From positions 282,906,001-282,970,000 of the forward strand of contig OZ024740.1 of the NCBI GenBank assembly GCA_964016885.1: a stretch of 64,000 nucleotides of DNA. Reading direction: 5' to 3'. The notes under the pieces were generated by a model. It was not told the origin of the DNA, did not search any database, and saw nothing but the letters and a program-made list of their open reading frames with translations. Position numbers and translations under genes: made by a program. Below are positions 6,001 to 63,834 of the stretch, one piece after another; the stretch's first letter is position 1, and the number at the start of each line of letters is the position of its first letter. This stretch comes from Eledone cirrhosa (Eukaryota).

Positions 6001-9000
6001 GTGGTGTAGGTTCGTGTATATTAGGGTAGGATGGTGTATAGTGGTGTAGGTTTGTGTATAGTAGGGTAGGATGGTGTACAGTGGTGTAGGTTTGTGTATA
6101 GTAGGGTAGGATGGTGTACAGTGGTGTAGGGTGGTGTATAGTAGGGTAGGATGGTGTACAGTGGTGTAGGCTGGTGTATAGTAGGGTGGGATGGTGTACA
6201 GTGGTGTAGGGTGGTGTATAGTAGGGTAGGATGGTGTATAGTGGTGTAGGTTTGTATATAGTAAGGTAGGATGGTGTACAGTGGTGTAGGTTTGTGTATA
6301 GTAGGGTAGGATGGTGTACAGTGGTGTAGGTTTGTGTATAGTAGGGTAGGATGGTGTATAGTGGTGTAGGTTTGTATATAGTAAGGTAGGATGGTGTACA
6401 GTGGTGTAGGATTGTGTATAGTAAGGTAGGATGGTGTACAGTGGTGTAGGTTTGTGTATAGTAGGGTGGGATGGTGTATAGTGGTGTAGGTTTGTGTATA
6501 GTAGGGTAGGATGGTGTACAGTGGTGTAGGTTTGTGTATAGTAGGGTGGGATGGTGTATAGTGGTGTAGGTTTGTGTATAGTAGGGTAGGATGGTGTACA
6601 GTGGTGTAGGTTTGTGTATAGTAGGGTAGGATGGTGTACAGTGGTGTAGGGTGGTGTATACTAGGGTAGGATGGTGTACAGTGGTGTAGGCTGGTGTATA
6701 GTAGGGTAGGATGGTGTACAGTGGTGTAGGCTGGTGTATAGTAGGGTAGGATGGTGTACAGTGGTGTATGGTGGTGTATAGTAGGGTAGGATGGTGTATA
6801 GTGGTGTAGGTTTGTGTATAGTAGGGTAGGATGGTGTATAGTGGTGTAGGTTTGTGTATAGTAGGGTAGGATGGTGTACAGTGGTGTAGATTTGTGTATA
6901 GTAGGGTAGGATGGTGTATAGTGGTGTAGGTTTGTGTATAGTAGGGTAGGATGGTGTATAGTGGTGTAGGTTTGTGTATAGTAGGGTAGGATGGTGTACA
7001 GTGGTGTAGGTTTGTGTATAGTAGGGTAGGATGGTGTACAGTGGTGTAGATTTGTGTATAGTAGGGTAGGATGGTGTATAGTGGTGTAGGTTTGTGTATA
7101 GTAAGGTAGGATGGTGTACAGTGGTGTAGGTTTGTGTATAGTAGGGTAGGATGGTGTACAGAGGTGTAGGTTTGTGTATAGTAGGGTAGGATGGTGTACA
7201 GTGGTGTAGGTTTGTGTATAGTAGGGTAGGATGGTGTACAGTGGTGTAGGGTGGTGTATAGTAGGGTAGGATGGTGTACAGTGGTGTAGGCTGGTGTATA
7301 GTAGGGTAGGATAGTGTACAGTGGTGTAGGCTGGTGTATAGTAGGGTAGGATGGTGTACAGTGGTGTAGGCTGGTGTATAGTAAGGTAGGATGGTGTACA
7401 GTGGTGTAGGGTGGTGTATAGTAGGGTAGGATGGTGTACAGTGGTGTAGGTTTGTGTATAGTAGGGTAGGATGGTGTACAGTGGTGTAGGTTTGTGTATA
7501 GTAGGGCAGGATGGTGTACAGTGGTGTAGGTTTGTGTATAGTAGGGTAGGATGGTGTACAGTGGTGTAGGCTGGTGTATAGTAGGGTAGGATGGTGTACA
7601 GTGGTGTAGGGTGGTGTATAGTAGGGTAGGATGGTGTACAGTGGTGTAGGTTTGTGTATAGTAGGGCAGGATGGTGTACAGTGGTGTAGGTTTGTGTATA
7701 GTAGGGTAGGATGGTGTACAGTGGTGTAGGGTGGTGTATAGTAGGGTAGGATGGTGTACAGTGGTGTAGGTTTGTGTATAGTGGGGTAGGATGGTGTACA
7801 GTGGTGTAGGGTGGTGTATAGTAGGGTAGGATGGTGTACAGTGGTGTAGGTTTGTGTATAGTAGGGTAGGATGGTGTACAGTGGTGTATGGTGGTGTATA
7901 GTAGGGTAGGATGGTGTACAGTGGTGTAGGTTTGTGTATAGTAGGGTAGGATGGTGTACAGTGGTGTAGGTTTGTGTATAGTAGGGTAGGATGGTGTATA
8001 GTGGTGTAGGTTTGTGTATAGTAGGGTAGGATGGTGTACAGTGGTGTAGGTTTGTGTATAGTAGGGTAGGATGGTGTTCAGTGGTGTAGGTTTGTGTATA
8101 GTAGGGTAGGATGGTGTACAGTGGTGTAGGCTGGTGTATAGTAGGGTAGGATGGTGTACAGTGGTGTAGGCTGGTGTATAGTAGGGTAGGATGGTGTACA
8201 GTGGTGTAGGCTGGTGTATAGTAGGGTAGGATGGTGTATAGTGGTGTAGGTTTGTGTATAGTAGGGTAGGATGGTGTACAGTGGTGAAGGTTTGTGTATA
8301 GTAGGGTAGGATGGTGTACAGTGGTGTAGGTTTGTGTATAGTAGGGTAGGATGGTGTACAGTGGTGTAGGTTTGTGTATAGTAGGGTAGGATGGTGTTCA
8401 GTGGTGTAGGCTGGTGTATAGTAGGGTAGGATGGTGTACAGTGGTGTAGGTTTGTGTATAGTAGGGTAGGATGGTGTACAGTGGTGTAGGCTGGTGTATA
8501 GTAGGGTAGGATGGTGTACAGTGGTGTAGGCTGGTGTATAGTAGTGTAGGATGGTGTACAGTGGTGTAGGTTTGTGTATAGTAGGGTAGGATGGTGTACA
8601 GTGGTGTAGGTTTGTGTATAGTAGGGTAGGATGGTGTAAAGTGGTGTAGGCTGGTGTATAGTAGGGTAGGATGGTGTACAGTGGTGTAGGCTGGTGTATA
8701 GTAGGGTAGGATGGTGTACAGTGGTGTAGGTTTGTGTATAGTAGGGTAGGATGGTGTATAGTGGTGTAGGTTTGTGTATAGTAGGGTAGGATGGTGTACA
8801 GTGGTGTAGGCTGGGGTATAGTAGGGTAGGATGGTGTACAGCGGTGTAGGTTTGTGTATAGTAGGGTAGGATGGTGTACAGTGGTGTAGGCTGGGGTATA
8901 GTAGGGTAGGATGGTGTATAGTGGTGTAGGCTGGGGTATAGTAGGGTAGGATGGTGTACAGCGGTGTAGGTTTGTGTATAGTAGGGCAGGATGGTGTACA

Positions 9001-12000
9001 GTGGTGTAGGCTGGGGTATAGTAGGGTAGGATGGTGTATAGTGGTGTAGGTTTGTGTATAGTAGGGCAGGATGGTGTACAGTGGTGTAGGCTGGGGTATA
9101 GTAGGGTAGGATGGTGTATAGTGGTGTAGGTTTGTGTATAGTAGGGTAGGATGGTGTATAGTGGTGTAGGTTTGTGTATAGTAGGGTAGGATGGTGTACA
9201 GTGGTGTAGGTTTGTGTATAGTAGGGCAGGATGGTGTACAGTGGTGTAGGCTGGGGTATAGTAGGGTAGGATGGTGTACAGTGGTGTAGGATTGTGTATA
9301 GTAGGGCAGGATGGTGTACAGTGGTGTAGGTTTGTGTATAGTAGGGTGGGATGGTGTATAGTGGTGTAGGTTTGTGTATAGTAGGGTAGGATGGTGTACA
9401 GTGGTGTAGGTTTGTGTATAGTAGGGTGGGATGGTGTATAGTGGTGTAGGTTTGTGTATAGTAGGGTAGGATGGTGTACAGTGGTGTAGGTTTGTGTATA
9501 GTAGGGTAGGATGGTGTACAGTGGTGTAGGGTGGTGTATACTAGGGTAGGATGGTGTACAGTGGTGTAGGCTGGTGTATAGTAGGGTAGGATGGTGTACA
9601 GTGGTGTAGGCTGGTGTATAGTAGGGTAGGATGGTGTACAGTGGTGTATGGTGGTGTATAGTAGGGTAGGATGGTGTATAGTGGTGTAGGTTTGTGTATA
9701 GTAGGGTAGGATGGTGTACAGTGGTGTAGGTTTGTGTATAGTAGGGCAGGATGGTGTACAGTGGTGTAGGTTTGTGTATAGTAGGGTAGGATGGTGTACA
9801 GTGGTGTAGGTTTGTGTATAGTAGGGCAGGATGGTGTACAGTGGTGTATGCTGGGGTATAGTAGGGTAGGATGGTGTACAGTGGTGTAGGTTTGTGTATA
9901 GTAGGGTAGGATGGTGTACAGTGGTGTAGGTTTGTGTATAGTAGGGCAGGATGGTGTACAGTGGTGTATGCTGGGGTATAGTAGGGTAGGATGGTGTACA
10001 GTGGTGTAGGTTTGTGTATAGTAGGGTAGGATGGTGTACAGTGGTGTAGGTTTGTGTATAGTAGGGCAGGATGGTGTACAGTGGTGTAGGTTTGTGTATA
10101 GTAGGGCAGGATGGTGTACAGTGGTGTAGGCTGGTGTATAGTAGGGTAGGATGGTGTACAGTGGTGTAGGTTTGTGTATAGTAGGGTAGGATGGTGTACA
10201 GTGGTGTAGGTTTGTGTATAGTAGGGTAGGATGGTGTACAGTGGTGTAGGTTTGTGTATAGTAGGGTAGGATGGTGTACAGTGGTGTAGGTTTGTGTATA
10301 GTAGGGTAGGATGGTGTACAGTGGTGTAGGTTTGTGTATAGTAGGGTAGGATGGTGTACAGTGGTGTAGGCTGGTGTATAGTAGGGTAGGATGGTGTTCA
10401 GTGGTGTAGGTTTGTGTATAGTAAGGTAGGATGGTGTACAGTGGTGTAGGTTTGTGTATAGTAGGGTAGGATGGTGTACAGTGGTGTAGGTTTGTGTATA
10501 GTAGGGTAGGATGGTGTACAGTGGTGTAGGTTTGTGTATAGTAGGGTAGGATGGTGTACAGTGGTGTAGGCTGGGGTATAGTAGGGTAGGATGGTGTACA
10601 GCGGTGTAGGTTTGTGTATAGTAGGGCAGGATGGTGTACAGTGGTGTAGGCTGGGGTATAGTAGGGTAGGATGGTGTACAGTGGTGTAGGTTTGTGTATA
10701 GTAGGGTAGGATGGTGTACAGTGGTGTAGGTTTGTGTATAGTAGGGTAGGATGGTGTACAGTGGTGTAGGTTTGTGTATAGTAGGGTAGGATGGTGTATA
10801 GTGCTGTAGGTTTGTGTATAGTAGGGTAGGATGGTGTACAGCGGTGTAGGTTTGTGTATAGTAGGGTAGGATGGTGTACAGTGGTGTAGGTTTGTGTATA
10901 GTAGGGTAGGATGGTGTACAGCGGTGTAGGTTTGTGTATAGTAGGGTAGGATGGTGTACAGTGGTGTAGGTTTGTGTATAGTAGGGTAGGATGGTGTATA
11001 GTGGTATAGGTTTGTGTATAGTAGGGTAGGATGGTGTACAGTGGTGTAGGTTCGTGTATAGTAGGGTAGGATGGTGTATAGTGGTATAGGTTTGTGTATA
11101 GTAGGGTAGGATGGTGTACAGTGGTGTAGGTTCGTGTATAGTAGTGTAGGATGGTGTACAGTGGTGTAGGTTTGTGTATAGTAGGGTAGGATGGTGTACA
11201 GTGGTGTAGGTTTGTGTATAGTAGGGTAGGATGGTGTATAGTGGTGTATGTTTGTGTATAGTAGGGTAGAATGGTGTACAGTGGTGTAGGTTTGTGTATA
11301 GTAGGGTAGGATGGTGTACAGTGGTGTAGGTTTGTGTATAGTAGGGTAGGATGGTGTAAAGTGGTGTAGGTTTGTGTATAGTAGGGTAGGATGGTGTATA
11401 GTGGTGTAGGTTTGTGTATAGTAGGGTAGAATGGTGTACAGCGGTGTAGGTTTGTGTATAGTAGGGTAGGATGGTGTACAGTGGTGTAGGTTTGTGTATA
11501 GTAGGGTAGGATGGTGTAAAGTGGTGTAGGTTTGTGTATAGTAGGGTAGGATGGTGTATAGTGGTGTAGGTTTGTGTATAGTAGGGTAGAATGGTGTACA
11601 GTGGTGTAGGTTTGTGTATAGTAGGGTAGGATGGTGTACAGTGGTGTAGGTTTGTGTATAGTAGGGTAGGATGGTGTACAGTGGTGTAGGTTTGTGTATA
11701 GTAGGGTAGGATGGTGTACAGTGGTGTAGGTTTGTGTATAGTAGGGTAGGATGGTGTACAGCGGTGTAGGTTTGTGTATAGTAGGGTAGGATGGTGTACA
11801 GTGGTGTAGGTTTGTGTATAGTAGGGTAGGATGGTGTACAGCGGTGTAGGTTTGTGTATAGTAGTGTAGGATGGTGTACAGTGGTGTAGGTTTGTGTATA
11901 GTAGGGTAGGATGGTGTACAGTGGTGTAGGTTCGTGTATAGTAGGGTAGGATGGTGTACAGTGGTGTAGGTTTGTGTATAGTAGGGTAGGATGGTGTACA

Positions 12001-15000
12001 GTGGTGTAGGTTTGTGTATAGTAGGGTAGGATGGTGTACAGTGGTGTAGGTTCGTGTATATTAGGGTAGGATGGTGTATAGTGGTGTAGGTTTGTGTATA
12101 GTAGGGTAGGATGGTGTACAGTGGTGTAGGTTTGTGTATAGTAGGGTAGGATGGTGTACAGTGGTGTAGGGTGGTGTATAGTAGGGTAGGATGGTGTACA
12201 GTGGTGTAGGCTGGTGTATAGTAGGGTGGGATGGTGTACAGTGGTGTAGGGTGGTGTATAGTAGGGTAGGATGGTGTATAGTGGTGTAGGTTTGTATATA
12301 GTAAGGTAGGATGGTGTACAGTGGTGTAGGTTTGTGTATAGTAGGGTAGGATGGTGTACAGTGGTGTAGGTTTGTGTATAGTAGGGTAGGATGGTGTATA
12401 GTGGTGTAGGTTTGTATATAGTAAGGTAGGATGGTGTACAGTGGTGTAGGATTGTGTATAGTAAGGTAGGATGGTGTACAGTGGTGTAGGTTTGTGTATA
12501 GTAGGGTGGGATGGTGTATAGTGGTGTAGGTTTGTGTATAGTAGGGTAGGATGGTGTACAGTGGTGTAGGTTTGTGTATAGTAGGGTGGGATGGTGTATA
12601 GTGGTGTAGGTTTGTGTATAGTAGGGTAGGATGGTGTACAGTGGTGTAGGTTTGTGTATAGTAGGGTAGGATGGTGTACAGTGGTGTAGGGTGGTGTATA
12701 CTAGGGTAGGATGGTGTACAGTGGTGTAGGCTGGTGTATAGTAGGGTAGGATGGTGTACAGTGGTGTAGGCTGGTGTATAGTAGGGTAGGATGGTGTACA
12801 GTGGTGTATGGTGGTGTATAGTAGGGTAGGATGGTGTATAGTGGTGTAGGTTTGTGTATAGTAGGGTAGGATGGTGTATAGTGGTGTAGGTTTGTGTATA
12901 GTAGGGTAGGATGGTGTACAGTGGTGTAGATTTGTGTATAGTAGGGTAGGATGGTGTATAGTGGTGTAGGTTTGTGTATAGTAGGGTAGGATGGTGTATA
13001 GTGGTGTAGGTTTGTGTATAGTAGGGTAGGATGGTGTACAGTGGTGTAGGTTTGTGTATAGTAGGGTAGGATGGTGTACAGTGGTGTAGATTTGTGTATA
13101 GTAGGGTAGGATGGTGTATAGTGGTGTAGGTTTGTGTATAGTAAGGTAGGATGGTGTACAGTGGTGTAGGTTTGTGTATAGTAGGGTAGGATGGTGTACA
13201 GAGGTGTAGGTTTGTGTATAGTAGGGTAGGATGGTGTACAGTGGTGTAGGTTTGTGTATAGTAGGGTAGGATGGTGTACAGTGGTGTAGGGTGGTGTATA
13301 GTAGGGTAGGATGGTGTACAGTGGTGTAGGCTGGTGTATAGTAGGGTAGGATAGTGTACAGTGGTGTAGGCTGGTGTATAGTAGGGTAGGATGGTGTACA
13401 GTGGTGTAGGCTGGTGTATAGTAAGGTAGGATGGTGTACAGTGGTGTAGGGTGGTGTATAGTAGGGTAGGATGGTGTACAGTGGTGTAGGTTTGTGTATA
13501 GTAGGGTAGGATGGTGTACAGTGGTGTAGGTTTGTGTATAGTAGGGCAGGATGGTGTACAGTGGTGTAGGTTTGTGTATAGTAGGGTAGGATGGTGTACA
13601 GTGGTGTAGGCTGGTGTATAGTAGGGTAGGATGGTGTACAGTGGTGTAGGGTGGTGTATAGTAGGGTAGGATGGTGTACAGTGGTGTAGGTTTGTGTATA
13701 GTAGGGCAGGATGGTGTACAGTGGTGTAGGTTTGTGTATAGTAGGGTAGGATGGTGTACAGTGGTGTAGGGTGGTGTATAGTAGGGTAGGATGGTGTACA
13801 GTGGTGTAGGTTTGTGTATAGTGGGGTAGGATGGTGTACAGTGGTGTAGGGTGGTGTATAGTAGGGTAGGATGGTGTACAGTGGTGTAGGTTTGTGTATA
13901 GTAGGGTAGGATGGTGTACAGTGGTGTATGGTGGTGTATAGTAGGGTAGGATGGTGTACAGTGGTGTAGGTTTGTGTATAGTAGGGTAGGATGGTGTACA
14001 GTGGTGTAGGTTTGTGTATAGTAGGGTAGGATGGTGTATAGTGGTGTAGGTTTGTGTATAGTAGGGTAGGATGGTGTACAGTGGTGTAGGTTTGTGTATA
14101 GTAGGGTAGGATGGTGTTCAGTGGTGTAGGTTTGTGTATAGTAGGGTAGGATGGTGTACAGTGGTGTAGGCTGGTGTATAGTAGGGTAGGATGGTGTACA
14201 GTGGTGTAGGCTGGTGTATAGTAGGGTAGGATGGTGTACAGTGGTGTAGGCTGGTGTATAGTAGGGTAGGATGGTGTATAGTGGTGTAGGTTTGTGTATA
14301 GTAGGGTAGGATGGTGTACAGTGGTGAAGGTTTGTGTATAGTAGGGTAGGATGGTGTACAGTGGTGTAGGTTTGTGTATAGTAGGGTAGGATGGTGTACA
14401 GTGGTGTAGGTTTGTGTATAGTAGGGTAGGATGGTGTTCAGTGGTGTAGGCTGGTGTATAGTAGGGTAGGATGGTGTACAGTGGTGTAGGTTTGTGTATA
14501 GTAGGGTAGGATGGTGTACAGTGGTGTAGGCTGGTGTATAGTAGGGTAGGATGGTGTACAGTGGTGTAGGCTGGTGTATAGTAGTGTAGGATGGTGTACA
14601 GTGGTGTAGGTTTGTGTATAGTAGGGTAGGATGGTGTACAGTGGTGTAGGTTTGTGTATAGTAGGGTAGGATGGTGTAAAGTGGTGTAGGCTGGTGTATA
14701 GTAGGGTAGGATGGTGTACAGTGGTGTAGGCTGGTGTATAGTAGGGTAGGATGGTGTACAGTGGTGTAGGTTTGTGTATAGTAGGGTAGGATGGTGTATA
14801 GTGGTGTAGGTTTGTGTATAGTAGGGTAGGATGGTGTACAGTGGTGTAGGCTGGGGTATAGTAGGGTAGGATGGTGTACAGCGGTGTAGGTTTGTGTATA
14901 GTAGGGTAGGATGGTGTACAGTGGTGTAGGCTGGGGTATAGTAGGGTAGGATGGTGTATAGTGGTGTAGGCTGGGGTATAGTAGGGTAGGATGGTGTACA

Positions 15001-18000
15001 GCGGTGTAGGTTTGTGTATAGTAGGGCAGGATGGTGTACAGTGGTGTAGGCTGGGGTATAGTAGGGTAGGATGGTGTATAGTGGTGTAGGTTTGTGTATA
15101 GTAGGGCAGGATGGTGTACAGTGGTGTAGGCTGGGGTATAGTAGGGTAGGATGGTGTATAGTGGTGTAGGTTTGTGTATAGTAGGGTAGGATGGTGTATA
15201 GTGGTGTAGGTTTGTGTATAGTAGGGTAGGATGGTGTACAGTGGTGTAGGTTTGTGTATAGTAGGGCAGGATGGTGTACAGTGGTGTAGGCTGGGGTATA
15301 GTAGGGTAGGATGGTGTACAGTGGTGTAGGATTGTGTATAGTAGGGCAGGATGGTGTACAGTGGTGTAGGCTGGGGTATAGTAGGGTAGGATGGTGTACA
15401 GTGGTGTAGGTTTGTGTATAGTAGGGTAGGATGGTGTACAGTGGTGTAGGTTTGTGTATAGTAGGGTAGGATGGTGTACAGTGGTGTAGGTTTGTGTATA
15501 GTAGGGTAGGATGGTGTACAGTGGTGTAGGTTTGTGTATAGTAGGGCAGGATGGTGTACAGTGGTGTAGGTTTGTGTATAGTAGGGCAGGATGGTGTACA
15601 GTGGTGTAGGCTGGGGTATAGTAGGGTAGGATGGTGTACAGTGGTGTAGGTTTGTGTATAGTAGGGTAGGATGGTGTACAGTGGTGTAGGTTTGTGTATA
15701 GTAGGGCAGGATGGTGTACAGTGGTGTAGGTTTGTGTATAGTAGGGCAGGATGGTGTACAGTGGTGTAGGCTGGTGTATAGTAGGGTAGGATGGTGTACA
15801 GTGGTGTAGGTTTGTGTATAGTAGGGTAGGATGGTGTACAGTGGTGTAGGTTTGTGTATAGTAGGGTAGGATGGTGTACAGTGGTGTAGGTTTGTGTATA
15901 GTAGGGTAGGATGGTGTACAGTGGTGTAGGTTTGTGTATAGTAGGGTAGGATGGTGTACAGTGGTGTAGGTTTGTGTATAGTAGGGTAGGATGGTGTACA
16001 GTGGTGTAGGCTGGTGTATAGTAGGGTAGGATGGTGTTCAGTGGTGTAGGTTTGTGTATAGTAAGGTAGGATGGTGTACAGTGGTGTAGGTTTGTGTATA
16101 GTAGGGTAGGATGGTGTACAGTGGTGTAGGTTTGTGTATAGTAGGGTAGGATGGTGTACAGTGGTGTAGGTTTGTGTATAGTAGGGTAGGATGGTGTACA
16201 GTGGTGTAGGCTGGGGTATAGTAGGGTAGGATGGTGTACAGCGGTGTAGGTTTGTGTATAGTAGGGCAGGATGGTGTACAGTGGTGTAGGCTGGGGTATA
16301 GTAGGGTAGGATGGTGTACAGTGGTGTAGGTTTGTGTATAGTAGGGTAGGATGGTGTACAGTGGTGTAGGTTTGTGTATAGTAGGGTAGGATGGTGTACA
16401 GTGGTGTAGGCTGGTGTATAGTAGGGTAGGATGGTGTACAGTGGTGTAGGTTTGTGTATAGTAGGGTAGGATGGTGTACAGTGGTGTAGGCTGGTGTATA
16501 GTAGGGTAGGATGGTGTACAGTGGTGTAGGTTTGTGTATAGTAGGGTAGGATGGTGTACAGTGGTGTAGGTTTGTGTATAGTAGGGTAGGATGGTGTACA
16601 GTGGTGTAGGTTTGTGTATAATAGGGTAGGATGGTGTACAGTGGTGTAGGTTTGTGTATAGTAGGGTAGGATGGTGTACAGTGGTGTAGGTTTGTGTATA
16701 GTAGGGTAGGATGGTGTACAGTGGTGTAGGTTTGTGTATAGTAGGGTAGGATGGTGTACAGTGGTGTAGGTTTGTGTATAGTAGGGTAGGATGGTGTACA
16801 GTGGTGTAGGTTTGTGTATAGTAGGGTAGGATGGTGTACAGTGGTGTAGGTTTGTGTATAGTAAGGTAGGATGGTGTACAGTGGTGTAGGGTGGTGTATA
16901 GTAGGGTAGGATGGTGTACAGTGGTGTAGGCTGGTGTATAGTAGGGTAGGATGGTGTACAGTGGTGTAGGTTTGTGTATAGTAAGGTAGGATGGTGTACA
17001 GTGGTGTAGGCTGGTGTATAGTAGGGTAGGATGGTGTACAGTGGTGTAGGTTTGTGTATAGTAAGGTAGGATTGTGTACAGTGGTGTAGGCTGGTGTATA
17101 GTAGGGTAGGATGGTGTACAGTGGTGTAGGTTTGTGTATAGTAGGGTAGGATGGTGTACAGTGGTGTAGGGTGGTGTATAGTAGGGTAGGATGGTGTACA
17201 GTGGTGTAGGTTTGTGTATAGTAGGGTAGGATGGTGTACAGTGGTGTAGGGTGGTGTATAGTAAGGTAGGATGGTGTACAGTGGTGTAGGTTTGTGTATA
17301 GTAAGGTAGGATGGTGTACAGTGGTGTAGGTTTGTGTATAGTAAGGTAGGATGGTGTATAGTGGTGTAGGTTTGTGTATAGTAGGGTAGGATGGTGTATA
17401 GTGGTGTAGGTTTGTGTATAGTAAGGTAGGATGGTGTACAGTGGTGTAGGTTTGTGTATAGTAAGGTAGGATGGTGTACAGTGGTGTAGGTTTGTGTATA
17501 GTAGGGTAGGATGGTGTACAGTGGTGTAGGTTTGTGTATAGTAGGGTAGGATGGCGTATAGTGGTGTAGGTTTGTGTATAGTAGGGTAGGATGGTGTATA
17601 GTGGTGTAGGTTTGTGTATAGTAGGGTAGGATGGCGTATAGTGGTGTAGGTTTGTGTATAGTAGGGTAGGATGGTGTACAGTGGTGTAGGTTTGTGTATA
17701 GTAGTGTAGGATGGTGTACAGTGGTGTAGGTTTGTGTACAGTAGGGTAGGATGGTGTACAGTGGTGTAGGTTTGTGTATAGTAAGGTAGGATGGTGTACA
17801 GTGGTGTAGGCTGGTGTATAGTAGGGTAGGATGGTGTATAGTGGTGTAGGTTTGTGTATAGTAGGGTAGGATGGTGTACAGTGGTGTAGGTTTGTATATA
17901 GTAGGGTAGGATGGTGTATAGTGGTGTAGGTTTGTGTATAGTAGGGTAGGATGGTGTACAGTGGTGTAAGTTTGTATATAGTAGGGTAGGATGGTGTATA

Positions 18001-18489
18001 GTGGTGTAGGTTTGTGTATAGTAGGGTAGGATGGTGTACAGTGGTGTAGGTTTGTGTACAGTAGGGTAGGATGGTGTACAGTGGTGTAGGTTTGTGTATA
18101 GTAAGGTAGGATGGTGTACAGTGGTGTAGGCTGGTGTATAGTAGGGTAGGATGGTGTATAGTGGTGTAGGTTTGTGTATAGTAGGGTAGGATGGTGTACA
18201 GTGGTGTAGGTTTGTGTATAGTAGGGTAGGATGGTGTACAGTGGTGTAGGTTTGTGTATAGTAGGGTAGGATGGTGTATAGTGGTGTAGGGTGGTGTATA
18301 GTAGGGTAGGATGGTGTACAGTGGTGTAGGTTTGTGTATAGTAGGGTAGGATGGTGTATAGTGGTGTAGGGTGGTGTATAGTAGGGTAGGATGGTGTACA
18401 GCGGTGTAGGTTTGTGTATAGTAGGGTAGGATGGTGTACAGTGGTGTAGGCTGGGGTATAGTAGGGTAGGATGGTGTATAGTGGTGTAG
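1..18489. repeat. 40-bp G/T-rich satellite array (consensus GTGGTGTAGGTTTGTGTATAGTAGGGTAGGATGGTGTACA), ~460 monomers, with ~6040-bp higher-order repeat
   Basis: Monomer read directly. Rare variants recur at 6040-bp spacing (ctaggg 621/6661/12701; gaggtg 1121/7161/13201; atagtg 1271/7311/13351). The array runs off the left edge of the window. Confidence 0.98.
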
Positions 18490-18566: not shown

Positions 18567-21140
18567 GGTGGTGGTGTTGTTTGTGGTTGGTTGTGGTGGT
18601 GGTGGCGGTGTTTGTCTTTGTTTGTGGTGGTGGTGGTGTTTGTGGTTGGTTGTGGTTGTGGTGGTGTTGTTTGTGGTTGGTTGTGATGGTGGTGGTGTTT
18701 GTGGTTGGTTGTGGTTGGTTGTGGTGTTGGTGGTGTTTGTGATTGGTGGTGGTGGTGGTGGTGGTGTTTGTCGTTGGTTGTGGTGGTGGTGTTTATGGTT
18801 GGTTGTGGTGGTGGTGGTGTTTGTGGTTGGTTGTTGTGGTGGTGGTCGTGTTTGTGGTTGGTTGTGGTGGTGTTGGTGTCTGTGGTTGGTTGTTGTGGTG
18901 GTGGTGTTTGTGGTTGGTTGTGGTGGTGGTGTTGTTTTTGGTTGGTTGTGGTGGTGGTGGTGTTTGTGGTTGGTTGTGGTGGTGGTGGTGGTGTCTGTCG
19001 TTGGTTGTGGTGGTGGTGGTGGTGGTGTTTGTGGTTGGTGGTGGTGGTGGTGTTTGTGGTTGGTTGTGGTGGTGGTGGTGGTGGTGGTGTTTGTGGTTGG
19101 TTGTGGTGGTGGTGGTGTTTGTGGTTGGTTGTGGTGGTGGTGGTGGTGTTTGTGGTCGTTTGTGGTGTTGGTGGTGTTTGTGGTTGATTGTGCTGGTGGT
19201 GCTGTTTGTGGTTGGTTGTGGTGGTGGTGGTGGTGTTAGTGGTTGGCTGTGGTGGTGGTGGTGGTGGTGGTGGTGTTTGTGGTTGGTTGTGGTGGTGGTG
19301 GTGTTTGTGGTTGGTTGTGGTGGTGGTGTTGTTTATTGTTGGTTGTGGTGGTGCCGGTGGTGGTGTTTGTAGTTGGTTGTGGTGGTGGTGGTGTTTGTGG
19401 TAGGTTGTGGTGGTGGTGGTGTTTGTGGTTGGTTGTGGTGGTGGTGGTGTTTGTGGTTGGTTGTGGTGGTGGTGTTGTTTGTGGTTGGTTGTGGTGGTGT
19501 TGTTTGTGGCTGGTTGTGATGGTGGTGGTGTTGTTTGTGGTTGGTTGTGGTGGTGGTGGTGTTGTTTGTGGTTGGTTGTGGTTGTGGTTGTGGTGGTGGT
19601 GGTGATTTTGGTTGGTTGTGGTGGTGGTGGAGTTTGTGGTTGGTTGTGGTGGTGGTGGTGGTGGTGTTTGTCGTTGGTTGCGGTGGTGATGGTGTTTGTG
19701 TTTGGTTGTGGTGGTGGTGGTGTTTGTGGTTGGTTGTGGTGGTGGTGATGTTTGTGGTTGGTTGTGGTGGTGGTGGTGGTGTTTGTCGTTGGTTGTGGTG
19801 GTGGTAGTGCTGTTTGTCGTTGGTTGTGGTGGTGGTGGTAGTGTTTGTCGTTGGTTGCGGTGGTGGTGGTGGTGTTTGTGGTTGGTTGTGGTGGTGGTGG
19901 TGGTGTTTGTGGTTGGTTGTGGTGGTGGTGTTGTTTATTGTTGGTTGTGGTGGTGGCGGTGGTGGTGTTTGTAGTTGGTTGTGGTGGTGGTGGTGTTTGT
20001 GGTAGGTTGTGGTGGTGGTGGTGTTTGTGGTTGGTTGTGGTGGTGGTGGTGTTTGTGGTTGGTTGTGGTGGTGGTGTTGTTTGTGGTTGGTTGTGGTGGT
20101 GTTGTTTGTGGCTGGTTGTGATGGTGGTGGTGTTGTTTGTGGTTGGTTGTGGTGGTGGTGGTGTTGTTTGTGGTTGGTTGTGGTTGTGGTTGTGGTGGTG
20201 GTGGTGATTTTGGTTGGTTGTGGTGGTGGTGGAGTTTGTGGTTGGTTGTGGTGGTGGTGGTGGTGGTGTTTGTCGTTGGTTGCGGTGGTGATGGTGTTTG
20301 TGTTTGGTTGTGGTGGTGGTGGTGTTTGTGGTTGGTTGTGGTGGTGGTGATGTTTGTGGTTGGTTGTGGTGGTGGTGGTGGTGTTTGTCGTTGGTTGTGG
20401 TGGTGGTAGTGTTGTTTGTCGTTGGTTGTGGTGGTGGTGGTATTGTTTGTCGTTGGTTGCGGTGGTGGTGGTGGTGTTTGTGGTTGGTTGTGGTGGTGGT
20501 GGTGGTGTTTGTGGTTGGTTGCGGTGGTGTTGGTGTTTGTGGTTGGATGTGGTGGTGGTGGTGGTGGTTGTCGTTGGTTGTGGTGATGGTGGTGCTGTTT
20601 GTCGTTTGTTGTGGTGGTGGTGGTGGTGGTGTTTGTGGTTGGATGTGGTGGTGGTGGTGGTGTTTGTCGTTGGTTGTGGTGATGGTGGTGGTGTTTGTCG
20701 TTGGTTGTGGTGGTGGTGGTGGTGGCGTTTGTGGTTGGATGTGGTGGTGTTGGTGGTGTTTGTGGTTGGATGTGGTGGTGATGGTGGTGGTGGTGTTTGT
20801 GTTCGGTTGTGGTGGTGGTGGTGGTGTCTGTCGATGGTTGTGGTTGTGGTGGTGGTGTTTGTCGTTGGTTGTGGTGGTGGTGGTGGTGTTTGTGTTTGGT
20901 CGTGGTGGTGGTGATGTTTGTGGTTGGTTGTGGTGGTGGTGGTGTTTGTGGTTGGTTGTGGTGGTGGTGGTGTTTGTGGTTGGTTGTGCTGGTTGTGATA
21001 GTGTTGTTTGTGGTGGCGGTGGTGGTGGTGGTGGTGGTGGTGGTGGCTTTAGTGGGCGTGTTGGTTGTGTTGATGGTGTTAGTGGGAGTTTTGGTTGTGA
21101 TGGTGGTGGTGGTGGTGGTGGTGGTGGTGGTGGTGGTGGT
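18567..21140. repeat. GGT/GTT-rich minisatellite (~27-35 bp unit TGTTTGTGGTTGGTTG(TGG)n) containing a 602-bp tandem duplication
   Basis: Unit visible by eye. Identical ORF translations 602 bp apart (19407/20009, 19535/20137). Confidence 0.92.
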
Positions 21141-29548: not shown

Positions 29549-29816
29549 AGTAATCCATCCTGATTTGCACACACACACACTTATATATATATAAGTGATC
29601 TGACGATTTGATCGGGTATGGGCTGTAATGTAATTAAGGTCGAGTGACGTAACTTCTAACGATCAGCGGCTTTTAGACTCACCTGATTAAAGAAACAATT
29701 GTTAATACTCTAAATAAACATTATTGTACAGCCGACCATGTTATTCTTCATTCTTTTACGTTGCCCCACCATTCGTGTTTGTTTACCTGTCTCTCTTTCT
29801 CCACCAAACTCTTTTT

Positions 29817-29919
29817 ATCACAATAACTTAATTTAGTTATTGTATCGCCCTAGCTTAAGGTATATGATCTGTAATGCGAAGAAATACCTATGATGGATAG
29901 TAGACCATTGATGACGGAT
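29817..29919 (+). ncRNA. Permuted pseudoknotted hammerhead-like motif, copy A1 (degenerate: C3U and helix mismatches)
   Basis: TCGC..CTAGCT..AGGTA-TA-TGATCTG..GCGA-A-GAAA-TACCT..GGATAG-TAGACCA-TTGATGA. Confidence 0.6.
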
Positions 29920-30385
29920 ATTCCTGGCTTCTATTTCTAATTCTTCATTCATTATATATATCCTATTTGCAACAACACAGCTGGCCATTTTTCATTCATA
30001 TATGCTTTCCCCTTCGCTGTGATCTGTCTATTTCTCTTCCCTTACTGCTATCCTCTTTCTCTCTTCCCCTTCCCTCTCCTTCTCCCTCTTACTTTCACTC
30101 ACCCCCTCTGCTAGTCACTCTCTCTCGGCTAGCCTCTTCCTCACACTTTCACTCATTCACTCTCTGCTACTCACCCTCTCTCTCACTCCATCGTCCCACA
30201 CCGTACGGGATTCTTTCCACGCTCACATCCGCAAGGCCAAGATGTGTCTTTGCCTTCTCGTCAATATTCGCAAGTTCTTATGTTCGAAATGAATCATTGA
30301 CTTGATTTTCTCATTTTTTCCTCTCTTTACGTTGCCTCACCATTCATGTTTGTTTACCTGTCTCTCTTTCTCCATCCAACTTTTT

Positions 30386-30488
30386 ATCCGAATAACTTAA
30401 TTTAGTTATTGTATTGCCCTAGCCGGATGTATATGGTCTGTAATGCGAAGAAATACCTATGATGGCTAGTAGACCACTGATGATGGAT
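30386..30488 (+). ncRNA. Permuted pseudoknotted hammerhead-like motif, copy A2
   Basis: ATCC-hairpin-TTGC-C-CTAGCC-GG-ATGTA-TA-TGGTCTG-TAAT-GCGA-A-GAAA-TACCT-ATGAT-GGCTAG-TAGACCA-CTGATGA-T-GGAT. Confidence 0.7.
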
Positions 30489-30524
30489 GGTCCTGGCTTC
30501 TATTTCTAATTCTTCATTTATTAT

Positions 30525-40577: not shown

Positions 40578-40635
40578 CCTAATTTGCATATCGAGTGAGT
40601 TAGTCGGCCGGGCGCACCGAAAACGATAAATGGAA

Positions 40636-41198
40636 AAAATGAAACGAAAATCCATTTCTCACACTTAGTACGGCTGTTACTTAAATATAAGTATGTATAC
40701 GTACATACATATATGTATACAGACGTAGAGTAGTATGTATATATATACATACATGCACATATATATATATATATGTACGTATGGGTTTACCGAACATTTA
40801 TTATAATGCAAATTAGGCTGCTCAGCCGTTAACATTCATAAGGAAAGTGTATACTTTCAGACGTTCAATCATCTGGCACGAAGGTATACGGTGCTGACGA
40901 TAGCTAATAAGCTTGAAACTAGTACATCGTTCCTTTGTCAGTGTTGAACAAAAGGGCAACGATGGTTGCTAAACACTGTACGGCTTAATTCGGGATGTTT
41001 GTTTACAAACAAACCGAACATTATAATAAATGTTCGGTAAACACATACATACACATATATATATATGTGTGTGCATGTATGTATATATATATAGATACTA
41101 CTGTACGTCTGTATAGATATATGTATGTACGTATACATACTTATATTTAAGTAAAAGCCGTACTAAGAGTGAGAAATGAAATTTCGTTTCATTTTTTT

Positions 41199-41238: not shown

Positions 41239-41490
41239 CGAAGGAAATGTGGTAAGGAACCAGGTGGACCATAACGCACCAAAGTACTCAATACTTAGGG
41301 TAGTAGAGTGGGTAATAGGAACCAGTAAGACCCCGACGGCTGAGCTCAAGCCGTTTCGACGGCTAATTCTGGTCTAGAATACATATATGCATACACACAT
41401 ACATACACATACATACATATACACACACTAGAATACAGAATTAGCCGTCGAAACGGCTTGAGCTCAGCCGTCGGGGTCTTACTGGTTCCT
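41238..41490. repeat. Family C fold-back element in (TA)n; arms carry a hammerhead 3' half
   Basis: AGGAACCAGTAAGACCCCGACGGCTGAGCTCAAGCCGTTTCGACGGCTAATTCTG and its exact reverse complement, separated by a CA/TA spacer. Confidence 0.85.
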
Positions 41491-41505
41491 ATATATATGT
41501 ATATA

Positions 41506-41553
<48 letters not shown>

Positions 41554-41597
41554 AATGATGGCTGCGCGTTGCAAATGGGGTGCATATGAAAAAGTAA

Positions 41598-41699
41598 GTC
41601 CTTCATCAGTGACCCTCCAACCGTCCCAGGCATTTCATCGCTTTAAGGGCCATATACCTCAGGTTGGTGCGAACAACGGCTAAAAAAAGTCGTTGGGAC
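41598..41699 (-). ncRNA. Permuted pseudoknotted hammerhead-like motif, copy B1 (best preserved)
   Basis: Minus strand: GTCC-CAACGACT(T6)AGCCGTTG-T-TCGC-A-CCAACC-TG-AGGTA-TA-TGGCCCT-TAAA-GCGA-T-GAAA-TGCCT-GGGAC-GGTTGG-AGGGTCA-CTGATGA-A-GGAC. Confidence 0.75.
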
Positions 41700-42303
41700 A
41701 CGTAAATAAAGGGGACGTTAGGGTAACAAACAAAATGGTTTAAGCAACGGAAAGTGAGAAGAAATAGACAAGTCCCAGATCTCTATGAATATAAACTCGG
41801 TGAAATCGTGAACAAGAGACAAAAGACCATCAAACCTGGTTGAAATATGAGCAAGGAAGGAATTTCGCACAGGTCTAACGGGGGGAAGAAGAAGAAGAAG
41901 AAGAAGAAGAAGAAGAAGAAGAAGAAGAAGAAGAAGAAGAAGAAGAAGAAGAAGAAGAAGAAGAAGGGGTCTCGTCTACGAATTCGGTAAACATAAGTTT
42001 TGTGAAGTCGCAGACGAAAGAGAGAGAGAGAAAAAAAATTTCATACCGGCTTGACCAAGAACGCGCGAGAAAAGAATTACACACAGGTCAAACGGGAAGG
42101 AAGAGAAGGAAAGAGGAGGAGGAGAGGTAGTGACAGAGAATGAGTGAGTGAAAGTTGAGGAGGAGGCTAACAGAGAGAGAGACTGCTAGAAAGGGTAATG
42201 ATACAAAGAACGAAACAGACGGTAGCAGCAGAAGAAAAATTATGTGTAAATATGATAATAATGATGGCTGCGCGTTGCAAATGGGGTGCATATGAAAAAG
42301 TAA

Positions 42304-42405
42304 GTCCTTCATCAGTGACCCTCCAACCGTCCCAGGCATTTCATCGCTTTAAGGGCCATATACCTCAGATTGGTGCGAACAACGGCTAAAAAAAGTCGTT
42401 GGGAC
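42304..42405 (-). ncRNA. Permuted hammerhead-like motif, copy B2
   Basis: Identical to B1 except CCAACC>CCAATC (G-U wobble retained). Confidence 0.73.
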
Positions 42406-42790
42406 ACGTAAATAAAGGGGACGTTAGGGTAACAAACAAAATGGTTTAAGCAACGGAAAGTGAGAAGAAATAGACAAGTCCCAGATCTCTATGAATATAA
42501 ACTCGGTGAAATCGTGAACAAGAGACAAAAGACCATCAAACCTGGTTGAAATATGAGCAAGGAAGGAATTTCGCACAGGTCTAACGGGGGGAAGAAGAAG
42601 AAGAAGAAGAAGAAGAAGAAGAAGAAGAAGAAGAAGAAGAAGAAGAAGAAGAAGAAGAAGAAGAAGAAGAAGAAGAAGAAGAAGAAGAAGAAGAAGAAGA
42701 AGAAGGGGTCTGGTCTACGAATTTGGTAAACATAAGTTTTGTGAAGTCGCAGACGTTTGTTTGTTACCCTAACGTCCCCTTTATTTACGT

Positions 42791-42892
42791 GTCCCAACGA
42801 CTTTTTTTAGCCGTTGTTCGCACCAACCTGAGGTATATGGCGCTTAAAGCGATGAAATGCCTGGGACGGTTGGAGGGTCACTGATGAAGGAC
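42791..42892 (+). ncRNA. Permuted hammerhead-like motif, copy B3 (in the inverted tail)
   Basis: Identical to B1 except TGGCCCT>TGGCGCT. Confidence 0.7.
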
Positions 42893-42898
42893 TTACTT

Positions 42899-42948
<50 letters not shown>

Positions 42949-43372: not shown

Positions 43373-43491
43373 CTCGTTACTTGGCGTAGTAGCGTATGGT
43401 TATATTATAAAGAGTCGGGTCCCATACGGTTGAGCTCTTGCCGTTTCAATAGCTAGTTCCTGTCTCAGTCTGGAACTAGCTATTGAAACGG
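43373..43491 (-). repeat. Family C-related fragment ending in a 20-bp hairpin
   Basis: CCGTTTCAATAGCTAGTTCC-11 nt-GGAACTAGCTATTGAAACGG; homologous to 29461. Confidence 0.65.
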
Positions 43492-44368
43492 ATGACCTAA
43501 TTATTGAATTAGCTTACAAAGAGGCAGAGTATTTTACAGACACCAGTATTTTTTAATCTAATTCTCATGGGGTAACAGCGTGACACAATATATTTGAAAT
43601 ATGGGTAGAATCCATCTGACGGGTTTCCATATATTATCCATCTACTCAATTTTACTCACATGGCTTCATCCGACCCGTGGCTAAGCATTTCTCTTTCTTC
43701 CTCGTCCCTCTTCTCTTCAATTCTGTGATAGATTTATCAATGATAGAGAGGGGAAGAAAACGAAAGTGCAAGGTTGTCAAACAAAGTAATTTAGCTCGGC
43801 TGACAGTTATCGCTAAGAGATAAAATTTATGTTGACTTGTTTAATATACTTAAAATAATAGCTCAACAGGCAAATACTTTCTGATCAGCTGAAATTTTTC
43901 ATCGGTCAAAATTCCTTATTGGATTAAAACCCCTACACGAAAATCTATGGAAGCCGGCCAAATGAGTCACTACACATATATCACTGCAATTATAATTTTT
44001 CTAAATATTCATCTCATCTTCAGAGATCAAACATTTAAATATAATTATATCCACTGTATTTTGATTGGTTAAGTCTTTGGACGTCACTAAATGAATTATT
44101 CCAGGATATGATACATACTACTTGACAAGATTTAAAATAGGAACGTTTATGTCTAAACTAATGGTAGTGACCAACGTAGATTCATAATAGGAAACATTGT
44201 AAAAATAACTAACCTGCGGGATTTAGAGAAATAATATCACTCTTACTATTATTTTGCTTAGTTTATTGGTTTGTGAAGTGGTGGGGTTAGGCACTTGAAG
44301 ATCGGTAAGATCAACGGTGTTTGTGTTTCAGGATGATAATGAGGATGATAATAGCGGTTCCTAATTTA

Positions 44369-54519: not shown

Positions 54520-56550
<2,031 letters not shown>

Positions 56551-61813: not shown

Positions 61814-63834
61814 TCACTCTTCATCCTTAACCCATCTGAAGAAGGATATTTTTAAGTGATGTGTACAACTTTTCGCTCTTTCAGCTCTGCTGTTGATGAG
61901 CTCGTGGGGTGCAGTTATGATGTGGTAGAGCTCCATGAGGCAAAGATCGCATTTCCTCTTGAAGTTGTACGGTGCAGCCCTGCCGACAATCTCCCAGTGC
62001 GTGGAGAAGCTGATGTTTAAGTCCTTTAGTGATGTAATGTAGTCCGCGAGCGAAGTGGGGTGCCTTAGTTTTCTATTTGTGAAAGAGTGGAGATGTGTTC
62101 GAAACCTAATTTTGAACGGGCCGGAGGTGGCCCCTATATATTGTTTAACGCTATTGTGGCTAGTAATAGTGCATCTATATATAACCCTATCAGTCAAGCA
62201 GTATCCTCTAAGGGGGCAGCGTCGTCTGTCGCGGCAGTTGCAATTTCTGTCGCGGTTCCGTCTATTTCCCACGGTAAGGCTATCATTGTTGCTGCCTACG
62301 TTGTTACCTACGCTACCGCAGCTGTCGTTAGCACAATTACAACCCACAGCACGCGGGGTGGTGCGATTGTTATTCCGCACGTCATGTTCTGCATGTTCCC
62401 CAGTCATTTCGCGGTTATTCTGGTTGCGACTGCGGATGCCGTTGCCAACACTATTGGATGCTGCCAGGGAGTTGTTAAGGCCGATATAGTTATTGTCAGG
62501 TGTAGTTGCGTCTGTGTCGAGGTGCTGTGTCTTGGTGATCTTACTGTGGTTCGTTGTTCCTATGATGTCTGCTACGTTAGGAGTAGTAGAGAAGGATATT
62601 TTTATATTGTTCCTATTAAGGATTTTTCTATACCTATGGTTGGGCGGGAAGTTCTTCTCTAAGGCTTCGAAGAACATCCGGGGTATGTTGGAGGCCACAC
62701 TCCGAGAGTAGGGGGGTGGGGTGGAACCATAGGACGTTACGGTGGCGATTACGTGTCCTTGTACTTTTGCTACGGGTGGTTTCATCTAAGTGACCGCTCT
62801 TATGTGTGTTAATGCGCAGTCGCCCGTTCGGTGCCCCTTTCACTTTATGCTCGGGTGCACTCTTTCTACCTCTTCCATGTTTATGTACACGAAGATGTTG
62901 GTTGGAAGGCGTTGGTAGTAGGCCGTCGCCTTTGTTGGTTTTGTAATAGGGGAATAGTTTGAGTAATCTACAGTGTTCACCGTCGCCGTGGACGTGATCT
63001 TTGATGTGGTTATCTATTCTATTATATCCGACTTTAACGAGGTCGCCGCGTGATCGGTTATAGGTATGGCTTACTATAACATTAATTTTATGAGGGGGGT
63101 GGTTTCTAGAGCTAGCGTTAGGGGTGCAGGAAATTCCTCGGTTAAAGCCGGCGCTTATCAGGGCCCTATTGTAGTAATCTGCCGCTTGGTTGAAGATATC
63201 CTCATTGGCGGATAGACTCGAGATTCTATGTGAGATACTATAGACTATGGAGTTGAGAGTCTGCTTAGGGTGGTTGGAGGCATAATTAATATAAGAGAGG
63301 CACTCTCCAGGCTTATGGTATGGCTTGTATAAGCCCGTACTCAACTCCAGGGTCACGTCCAGGAAGTTGACAACCCTGTGGTTGAGGTCCATAGTTACGG
63401 ATAGGCCGTATGACTTAAAGAACCTGTGTATATGTTTGTTAAGGTTCTCTATCCTACGGGGGCTATGGTTTCTAACGGTAAACAGGGCGTCGTCCCTATA
63501 TACACCTCCTTGTAGGGCCGGTATTTCTTCCCTAAGATTATGTAGGAGGTATATTCCGACCAGGTCAGTTGCTTGCGCTGAGTCACTGGACCCCATCGTG
63601 ACATCGAAGTTATCAGGACGGTTGGTTCTGGTCCAGTGGGAGTCTTAGAACTGGATAATGGTTCTACGTGCCGCTAGAATTATGTCTATTTCTTTTTTAG
63701 TGAGGCTAGTGTTAGATCTAGCTAAGATAAGTGCCTTATTTAAGAGTATGGGGGAGATAGAGGCGTAGTAACTATCTATATCAAACTGGATGAATTTCCG
63801 GGTGGCTTTATCCGGCAACTCGGTGAACCAATTA
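61814..63834 (-). pseudogene. Penelope-like element ORF (RT plus C-terminal GIY-YIG), 5'-truncated, with one stop and one frameshift; resembles Hydra-group PLEs
   Basis: RT motifs KFIQFDIDSYYASIS, TMGSSDSAQATDLVG, VYRDDAL, VNFLDVTL, YINYASNHP. Linker PPYSRSVASNI...KILNRNNIKISFS. Endonuclease CNCR...CPL.GYCL...VIYRCTI...YIGAT...FKIRF..H...CDLCLME...IN. Confidence 0.92.

Follow-up and report, generated by a model that had tools for sequence, protein, structure and literature searches.

Metazoan retrozymes are defined by type I hammerhead ribozymes together with expressed RNA circles (Cervera and de la Pena 2020, PMC7229834; Li et al. 2026, bioRxiv 10.64898/2026.07.22.740005), and the main text of the preprint reports that eight of nine predicted Xenopus retrozyme dimers did not cut. 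Penelope-like elements (PLEs), including the Naiad clade, are described with partial tandem copies, an inverted 5′ copy, a 30–40-bp tail and an insertion bias for (TA)n; Naiads lack canonical hammerheads, but core or half-core words occur in some of them (Craig et al. 2021, PMC8557442). In PAc, another PLE, the tail lies between two internal reverse-transcription start sites, and insertion in vitro did not depend on cutting by its hammerhead (Frangieh et al. 2024, PMC11167929).

According to the main text of Eckert et al. (2023, PMC10085705), type-SGC ribozymes were found in metatranscriptomes and none in the genomes of known organisms. Stem II is essential in these ribozymes, the CUGAnGA block is assumed to be continuous with stem II, and some monomeric examples have directly joined helices. 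The same text includes only two type-CSG sequences, both from metagenomes. A search of mostly open-access literature, using the main texts of Eckert et al. and of the preprint, returned no SGC-order hammerhead placed in an animal genome or in a Naiad.

Here, we analysed an element at 41490-42946 of a 64,000-nt stretch of the Eledone cirrhosa genome (contig OZ024740.1, positions 282,906,001 to 282,970,000; from here: the window). We propose, with a probability of roughly 0.6, that the locus is one insertion of a young, high-copy, non-coding, PLE-ended tandem element, that a PLE reverse transcriptase-endonuclease acting in trans likely copied it into (TA)n, and that each unit carries a covarying fold in S-G-C order (site-GAAA-CUGAUGA) predicted to cut. 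The element itself belongs to a known kind of mobile DNA; the wiring of its ribozyme motif is unreported.

Anatomy of the locus

The element is flanked by (TA)n on both sides, at 41490-41539 and at 42903-42946. The left target run lies at the 3′ end of the element and grades into a short TAA expansion (together 41490-41545); the right one is a (TA)22 run. In a preliminary description, (TA)n and (TAA)n had both been listed as flanking tracts. The former is correct for either side, whereas the TAA stretch is an expansion of the element's own end, because other copies join (TA)n directly.

Across copies, one side of the element is fixed at two positions, and the other is ragged, frequently with an inversion. 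The minus strand of the window is therefore the sense strand, and the left end is the fixed 3′ end. The 3′-most unit in sense orientation, unit 1 (41546-42251, minus strand), is complete and 706 nt long. It contains a 38-nt tail (41546-41583, minus strand) between a long 3′ end near 41546 and a short 3′ end at 41584. Unit 2 (42252-42755, minus strand) is 5′-truncated; its 504 nt are made up of the first 471 positions of the unit and an additional 33 nt of GAA, with three substitutions relative to unit 1. The GAA/TTC microsatellite occupies 41885-41966 in unit 1 (27.3 repeats) and 42591-42705 in unit 2 (38.3 repeats), on the minus strand in both. The remaining 151 nt (42756-42906, plus strand) form an inverted arm, 99% complementary to 41584-41734, which stops at the short 3′ end without the tail. 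The first reading of about 1.7 head-to-tail copies of a 706-bp unit, followed by a 150-bp inverted copy that contains the ribozyme motif again, was therefore accurate, except that what had been called an inverted tail is a 5′-inverted copy when read on the sense strand. The unit had also rightly been called ORF-less: its longest ATG frames measure 83 codons (sense) and 63 codons (antisense), and neither has a Pfam match at E ≤ 0.1.

At 41316-41490 and 43410-43495 of the window there are small TA-associated palindromes that have GAAA and stem-III-like arms but a degenerate CUGA word; such elements often adjoin copies of the studied element (loci L017, L058 and L065). At its start, the window consists of a 40-bp satellite (1-18489; 462 copies, 95% matches), followed by a G/T-rich array of 28–31-bp repeats at 18567-21137.

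A hammerhead-like core in permuted order

The first motif copy covers 41602-41695 on the minus strand. Read in sense direction, the hairpin P0 (41695-41674) is followed by an upstream stem II strand (41672-41669), stem IIIb (41667-41662), stem IIIa with U16.1 (41659-41654) and H17 (41653), the predicted cut falling between 41653 and 41652. Then come stem I (41652-41646), the 3′ strand of stem II (41641-41638) with position 11.1 at 41637, the GAAA block (41636-41633), the strands IIIa′ (41632-41628), IIIb′ (41622-41617) and I′ (41616-41610), and finally CUGAUGA (41609-41603) with position 10.1 at 41602. Copy 2 (42308-42401, minus strand; H17 at 42359, GAAA from 42342, CUGAUGA from 42315) has one stem IIIb pair turned into a wobble. 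In copy 3 (42795-42888, plus strand; H17 at 42837, GAAA from 42854, CUGAUGA from 42881) a substitution breaks stem I after four pairs.

When all six block orders were searched in the element, S-G-C was the only one matched, once in each of the three copies, and hammerheads of types I, II, III, CSG and GCS were not found. Canonical stem II amounts to 1 bp in these matches. A permuted hammerhead had been claimed for each unit; what stands is a hammerhead-like core in permuted order, present in 3/3 copies, but not a hammerhead of type I, II or III. An Rfam scan of the window gave 129 matches at E ≤ 1, none of them to a hammerhead or another ribozyme family. In shuffles with the two core words fixed, any S-G-C match arose in 66 of 5000 and the combination of stem III of at least 5 with stem I of at least 6 in one of 5000, compared with the observed values of 5 and 8. 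Single-strand folding of four windows of 120–140 nt (z of 0.12, −0.86, 0.11 and −1.28) was uninformative for a pseudoknot. The descriptor matched 240 times in 1.33 Mb of fetched loci and never on the reversed sequence; as these loci were picked for the motif, the count gives no genome rate.

Further hammerhead-related sequences occur in the window. At 30375-30493 (plus strand), with a decayed partner near 29810-29915, there is a second S-G-C family with rewritten stems, arranged as a partial tandem ~570 nt apart that ends in (TA)n; the A-U type of pair 10.1-11.1 comes from this family. A canonical minimal type I hammerhead with CUGACGA, a short stem II and a palindromic stem III is found at 40880-40925 (plus strand), inside an element with inverted arms at 40634-40783 and 41048-41197.

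Copy number and arrays in the genome

Searching the 3.0 Gb of the Eledone cirrhosa genome yielded 1,964 exact matches to a 24-mer around the motif core, and none for the reversed control. A genome-wide copy count had been called for, and by this measure the unit is not single-copy. A looser pattern for the wider lineage matched 8,559 times genome-wide (control 0). A first look with each half of the unit produced 2,252 and 2,105 candidates, the best 40 of each being scored; for the first half, the best 40 of 2,252 candidates were 99% identical. The copies are dispersed across many contigs. Youth of the insertion had been deduced from the different lengths of the GAA tracts. Youth is borne out by the 99% identity of the best 40 copies, but the argument from GAA length fails, as the tract ranges from 3 to 45 repeats across copies and reflects slippage. 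We regard the description of the element as a young, high-copy, non-coding tandem unit as supported.

Arrays range from fragments up to 9 and 11 units. The unit period was 630–772 nt in 37 of 38 measured spacings and 473 nt in the remaining one; two spacings of 2.9 kb, among the matches listed, were due to unrelated inserts. Each array holds one subfamily. Units within arrays differ by 1.4% (104 pairs) versus 4.4% between arrays (3,637 pairs), and in 6 of 31 arrays the units have a private variant in common that is absent from all other arrays; units inside one array also differ in length. Contigs of unrecorded kind from two of four listed sequencing runs, both of one study, contained only family variants and the head-to-tail joint that is present in DNA, and are therefore uninformative about expression. 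Two arrays have additional features. L240:1-2150 is made up of a 129-bp sub-repeat in ~16 copies, taken from the central part of a related unit; in that unit, two diverged versions of the sub-repeat flank the GAA tract. The 11-unit array at L348 consists of two interleaved haplotypes, which suggests a two-unit template or later unequal exchange.

Insertion ends and a proposed course of insertion

Among 114 motif copies in 67 separate insertions, 53 stop at the long end and 17 at the short one. None stops at any other position, and the remaining 44 run on into the next unit or elsewhere. The two fixed 3′ ends, 38 nt apart (41584 and 41546 in the window), lie ~68 and ~106 nt downstream of the predicted cut and 17 and ~56 nt past the core. 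Circularly permuted ends had been suggested as a check; the ends are fixed at two sites instead. The 5′ ends are ragged and often carry a 5′ inversion (in the window and, e.g., in L003, L030, L050, L061 and L083). Partial tandem copies with variable 5′ truncation, an inverted 5′-truncated copy beside the upstream unit, as at 42756-42906, and a tail of 30–40 bp at one end only are all PLE features, so that the earlier appeal to tandem and inverted copies as a PLE hallmark holds across the copies. The insertion bias for (TA)n and the lack of a canonical hammerhead, both features of the Naiad clade, were found as well. The element is very probably a non-autonomous element of PLE type.

A close parallel for the two ends is PAc Poseidon (PMC11167929), in which two fixed 3′ ends likewise bound a tail downstream of the ribozyme site and the target is also AT-rich. 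PAc differs in being autonomous and in having a type I motif, and its mechanism is applied here by analogy. By this analogy, the bounds of the 38-nt tail are likely two reverse-transcription start sites.

The preferred reading would entail the following course. The minus strand of a source array would be transcribed as read-through multimers. A PLE protein would bind near the 3′ structure and nick (TA)n, and reverse transcription might start internally at either tail end, as in PAc (PMC11167929). Truncation or strand switching would give the ragged and inverted 5′ side, and the hammerhead-type fold would likely trim the multimers. Most likely, the motif folds well only with the CUGAUGA block from the neighbouring unit, because IIIb′ runs straight into I′ without a spacer; it would then cut multimers and spare monomers and circles. 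Other PLE hammerheads act as dimers too, in another way (PMC4209133). A monomer fold is nevertheless conceivable, since directly joined helices are described for some monomeric SGC ribozymes (PMC10085705).

Is the template a circle?

Among the alternatives, the one that survives best is a true circular retrozyme: cleavage at every ribozyme would release the 706-nt monomer, which would be ligated and copied into tandems by rolling-circle reverse transcription. It accords with arrays of up to 9 and 11 units and with the common subfamily variants, sometimes private, of the units of one array; the predicted monomer also folds better than 20 shuffles (z −3.7). Moreover, the start sites lie just downstream of the cut, from where a cut linear monomer could not give long copies and a circle could. 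Given fixed ends ~68 and ~106 nt downstream of the cut, longer insertions need either an uncut multimer or a circle. The homogeneity of the arrays does not separate the two: it fits a circle or a homogeneous multimer, and the 1.4% divergence and the length differences within arrays fit later mutation or a multimer template equally. The predicted monomer is only partly paired and does not appear to be a rod-like, highly self-paired RNA, since long pyrimidine stretches are left open, which is a point against a circle.

Frequent use of a cut linear RNA as template should lead to an accumulation of 5′ ends at the cut. We counted ~39 true 5′ junctions by eye within 110 nt upstream of the core, from 130 rows after subtraction of internal indels and subfamily divergence. 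There was no pile-up at the predicted cut among them, a point against the circular retrozyme as well; they spread from 17 to 109 nt upstream of the core, one lying exactly at the predicted cut and five to six within 5 nt upstream of it. TATA microhomology could be the cause of these five to six. All in all, we consider the full circular retrozyme rather unlikely, and a circle as the usual template only a little less so.

The comparison with described retrozymes is similarly divided. As in the metazoan non-LTR retrozymes of PMC7229834 and of Li et al., there are non-coding tandem units with one hammerhead-type motif each, a GC content below 50% and a PLE relationship, and the unit is dispersed, multi-copy and without LTR. 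Its 706 nt fall within the 51–972-bp range given in the preprint but exceed the 170–400-nt circles of PMC7229834. Unlike in those retrozymes, the motif is not a type I hammerhead, the monomer does not appear to be highly self-paired, and its circles are hypothetical. Of the initial retrozyme-like reading, the young, high-copy, non-coding tandem remains. The type I hammerhead that defines metazoan retrozymes, circularly permuted ends and a pile-up of 5′ ends at the cut are absent. At most, the element works like a retrozyme.

Covariation and the wiring of stem II

For the covariation analysis, 14 related sequences were aligned; two of 16 rows, L225 and L212, were omitted since they were out of register in the alignment. 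Diverged relatives of the motif turned up beside GIY-YIG loci and by pattern search. In a six-helix model, 94.0% of 448 cells pair, with two-sided changes in 19 of 32 pairs. None of 500 shuffles scored as high and slid controls reached 29–49%; both controls lean in the model's favour, the structure having been derived from the same related sequences. Two-sided changes affect 6 of 7 pairs in stem I, 1 of 6 in stem IIIa and 5 of 6 in stem IIIb. In descriptor output, the same helices appear in the families L194/L212 and L225, which are unlike in sequence. GAAA, CUGAUGA and U16.1 are invariant in 14/14, in rows picked by a descriptor or pattern that requires them. The fold is very probably under selection.

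Stem II is wired in an unusual way. Canonical stem II is 38.8% paired in the 14 sequences. Pair 10.1-11.1 is kept in all of them, as UA, UG, CG or AU, and the next three positions pair in one, none and none of 14. Instead, the partner of the strand that precedes GAAA is a run of four bases located upstream of stem III, and this pairing is 98% complete in the 14 sequences. Upstream stem II is the weakest helix, with four pairs, two of them invariant, and one two-sided change in one sequence; an overlapping, wobble-rich register also scores. Both points, like the essential role of stem II in type-SGC ribozymes (PMC10085705), tell against the proposed reading.

Compared with the type-SGC ribozymes in the main text of PMC10085705 (HRIMA-1 and variants), the motif has the same order of blocks with an intact core, a short linker joining the stem I strand to the stem II strand, and covarying stems I and III. 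It differs in that stem II, apart from pair 10.1-11.1, is formed with a strand located upstream, in the additional hairpin P0 and the two-part stem III, and in the lack, by eye, of a clear helix between stems I and II, the candidate strand being used by stem IIIb. It is also chromosomal, in thousands of copies, and its cleavage is predicted.

These features bear on a second alternative, namely that the fold has lost its ability to cut and is kept as a signal that the PLE enzyme binds or that positions the template, with core words that persist for structural reasons or by recent descent. This would suit the absence of canonical stem II, the proximity of the fixed ends to the core (17 and ~56 nt) and the normal insertion of PAc hammerhead mutants (PMC11167929). 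However, the UH site, GAAA, CUGAUGA and the purine-rich 10.1-11.1 pair stay in register although the stems are rewritten, and H17 is always A or C in the 14 aligned sequences. We consider a non-cutting signal unlikely, and cleavage at the predicted site between 41653 and 41652 slightly more likely than not.

Relation to Naiads and the search for a coding partner

In the published Naiad consensus sequences (PMC8557442), the same layout can be recognized by eye at 7 of 19 listed CTGATGA places, corresponding to four independent types, with an upstream stem II of 6 bp. Three coral records account for some of these places; another is in part 12 and a further one in part 19, and the rest are in the two records that precede Naiad_Ovul and Naiad_Omin, the record names being assigned from file order. 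Nematode Naiad records in the supplement of the same article contain, by eye, complete type-CSG hammerheads that have stems I, II and III plus an extra joining helix. In type-CSG hammerheads (PMC10085705) the 5′ strand of stem II precedes the site and GAAA blocks in the same order as here; here, the CUGAUGA block comes last and lacks continuity with the greater part of stem II. The upstream stem II of the Naiad layout and the nematode C-S-G records suggest that the motif corresponds to a type-CSG hammerhead that was broken open directly behind position 10.1, its CUGAUGA block having shifted to the end. Naiad ancestry is probable on this by-eye reading of published consensus sequences.

The element is similar to the Naiad clade (PMC8557442) in its (TA)n target, partial tandems, inverted 5′ copy, 30–40-bp tail and lack of a canonical hammerhead, and in the layout that several consensus 3′ ends have by eye. 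Unlike Naiads, it has no ORF, and hence none combining an N-terminal GIY-YIG, a CxC linker and a C-terminal RT; moreover, no sequence link from the element to a Naiad ORF was found in this genome. Naiad-like matches in the Eledone cirrhosa genome numbered 32 among 43 candidates, all decayed, with open frames of 39–156 aa, and none of the matches listed had the motif at its ends. A codon pattern for Naiad motifs matched nine times versus three in the control; seven of the nine, among the matches listed, were Naiad-like and broken. As the Naiad copies are decayed, we do not assign the driver enzyme to Naiad.

A third possibility is that the unit is the pseudo-LTR of an intact coding PLE missed by the searches, with the tandems as by-products. 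The share of copies inspected was small (the best 40 of over 2,000 candidates scored), and the Naiad probes cover one lineage, which leaves some room for such an element. Against it, 30 of 30 position-ordered exact matches were flanked by the unit itself, (TA)n or unrelated DNA, and in every tandem seen the unit's own tail is followed by its own start. A search for an autonomous RT ORF attached to the unit, as proposed at the outset, agrees with the non-coding reading and speaks against a unit that is always just the UTR of a coding element: none of these 30 unbiased loci is joined to a coding region within 1.5 kb. For the GIY-YIG domain (PF01541), the best 150 of 10,595 candidates were scored and 30 loci plus 20 longer stretches examined; among the matches listed, the unit was the end of a GIY-YIG locus in 0 of these 50, and only chance lineage neighbours occurred. 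No Naiad frame lay upstream in 26 stretches beside related or other GAAA...CUGAUGA matches, among the matches listed. A pseudo-LTR is thus improbable. As a partner lead, a short tail word in common with window position 56280 was dropped, being present in 1 of 30 copies of that family.

An ordinary satellite or chance motif, for which the microsatellite-rich surroundings and the lack of an Rfam hammerhead match might speak, can be dismissed in view of the dispersed copies with fixed ends on many contigs, the single shuffle in 5000 matching the stems and the compensatory changes in the stems.

Implications of the element

Beyond the preferred reading, the motif might be an active hammerhead outside the six block orders of Eckert et al. 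(PMC10085705), opened within the catalytic core, and the hidden ribozyme of Naiad-type retroelements. It would assemble from two units, cut multimers and spare the circle, and represent a second class of animal retrozymes that has outlived its parent Naiad and rides another PLE clade. We put this forward as a speculation that is rather less likely than its opposite. It would matter since, in the literature covered, non-circularly permuted hammerheads have so far been known from environmental sequence only. A form that is broken beside its core and kept in thousands of chromosomal copies would broaden the rules that apply to the best-studied small ribozyme, and would explain why Naiads seemed to lack a ribozyme. 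In any case, the element lends itself to testing: compensatory variants occur naturally, the cut is predicted at a single bond, and a prediction separates monomer from tandem. A young family alongside dead Naiads raises the question of which enzyme moves the element.

Other PLEs in the genome and in the window

Long uninterrupted frames with Neptune-like RT and GIY-YIG were noticed at L121:1775-5062 (plus strand, 1096 aa) and in L122 (minus strand, 938 aa), which makes them candidates for a still working PLE enzyme; no end sequence common to the unit and the long Neptune-like RT frames (1096 aa, L121) was found. The regions downstream in L091-L118 belong to old Neptune-like families, with hammerhead-like motifs of a U3-A8 core ~430–560 nt after the endonuclease. 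Within the window, frameshifted RT and GIY-YIG frames, Hydra-clade-like by eye, are present at 61814-63644 (minus strand); after them, at about 61530-61480, comes a type I motif that has the U3-A8 core variant. The stretch 55198-56340 (plus strand) holds a GIY-YIG fragment (Pfam PF01541 at the cut-off) of a PLE family with 1,700 candidates, the best copies of which are 96–97% identical; this family shows a 5′ inversion and a hammerhead-like stretch near 56080-56120.
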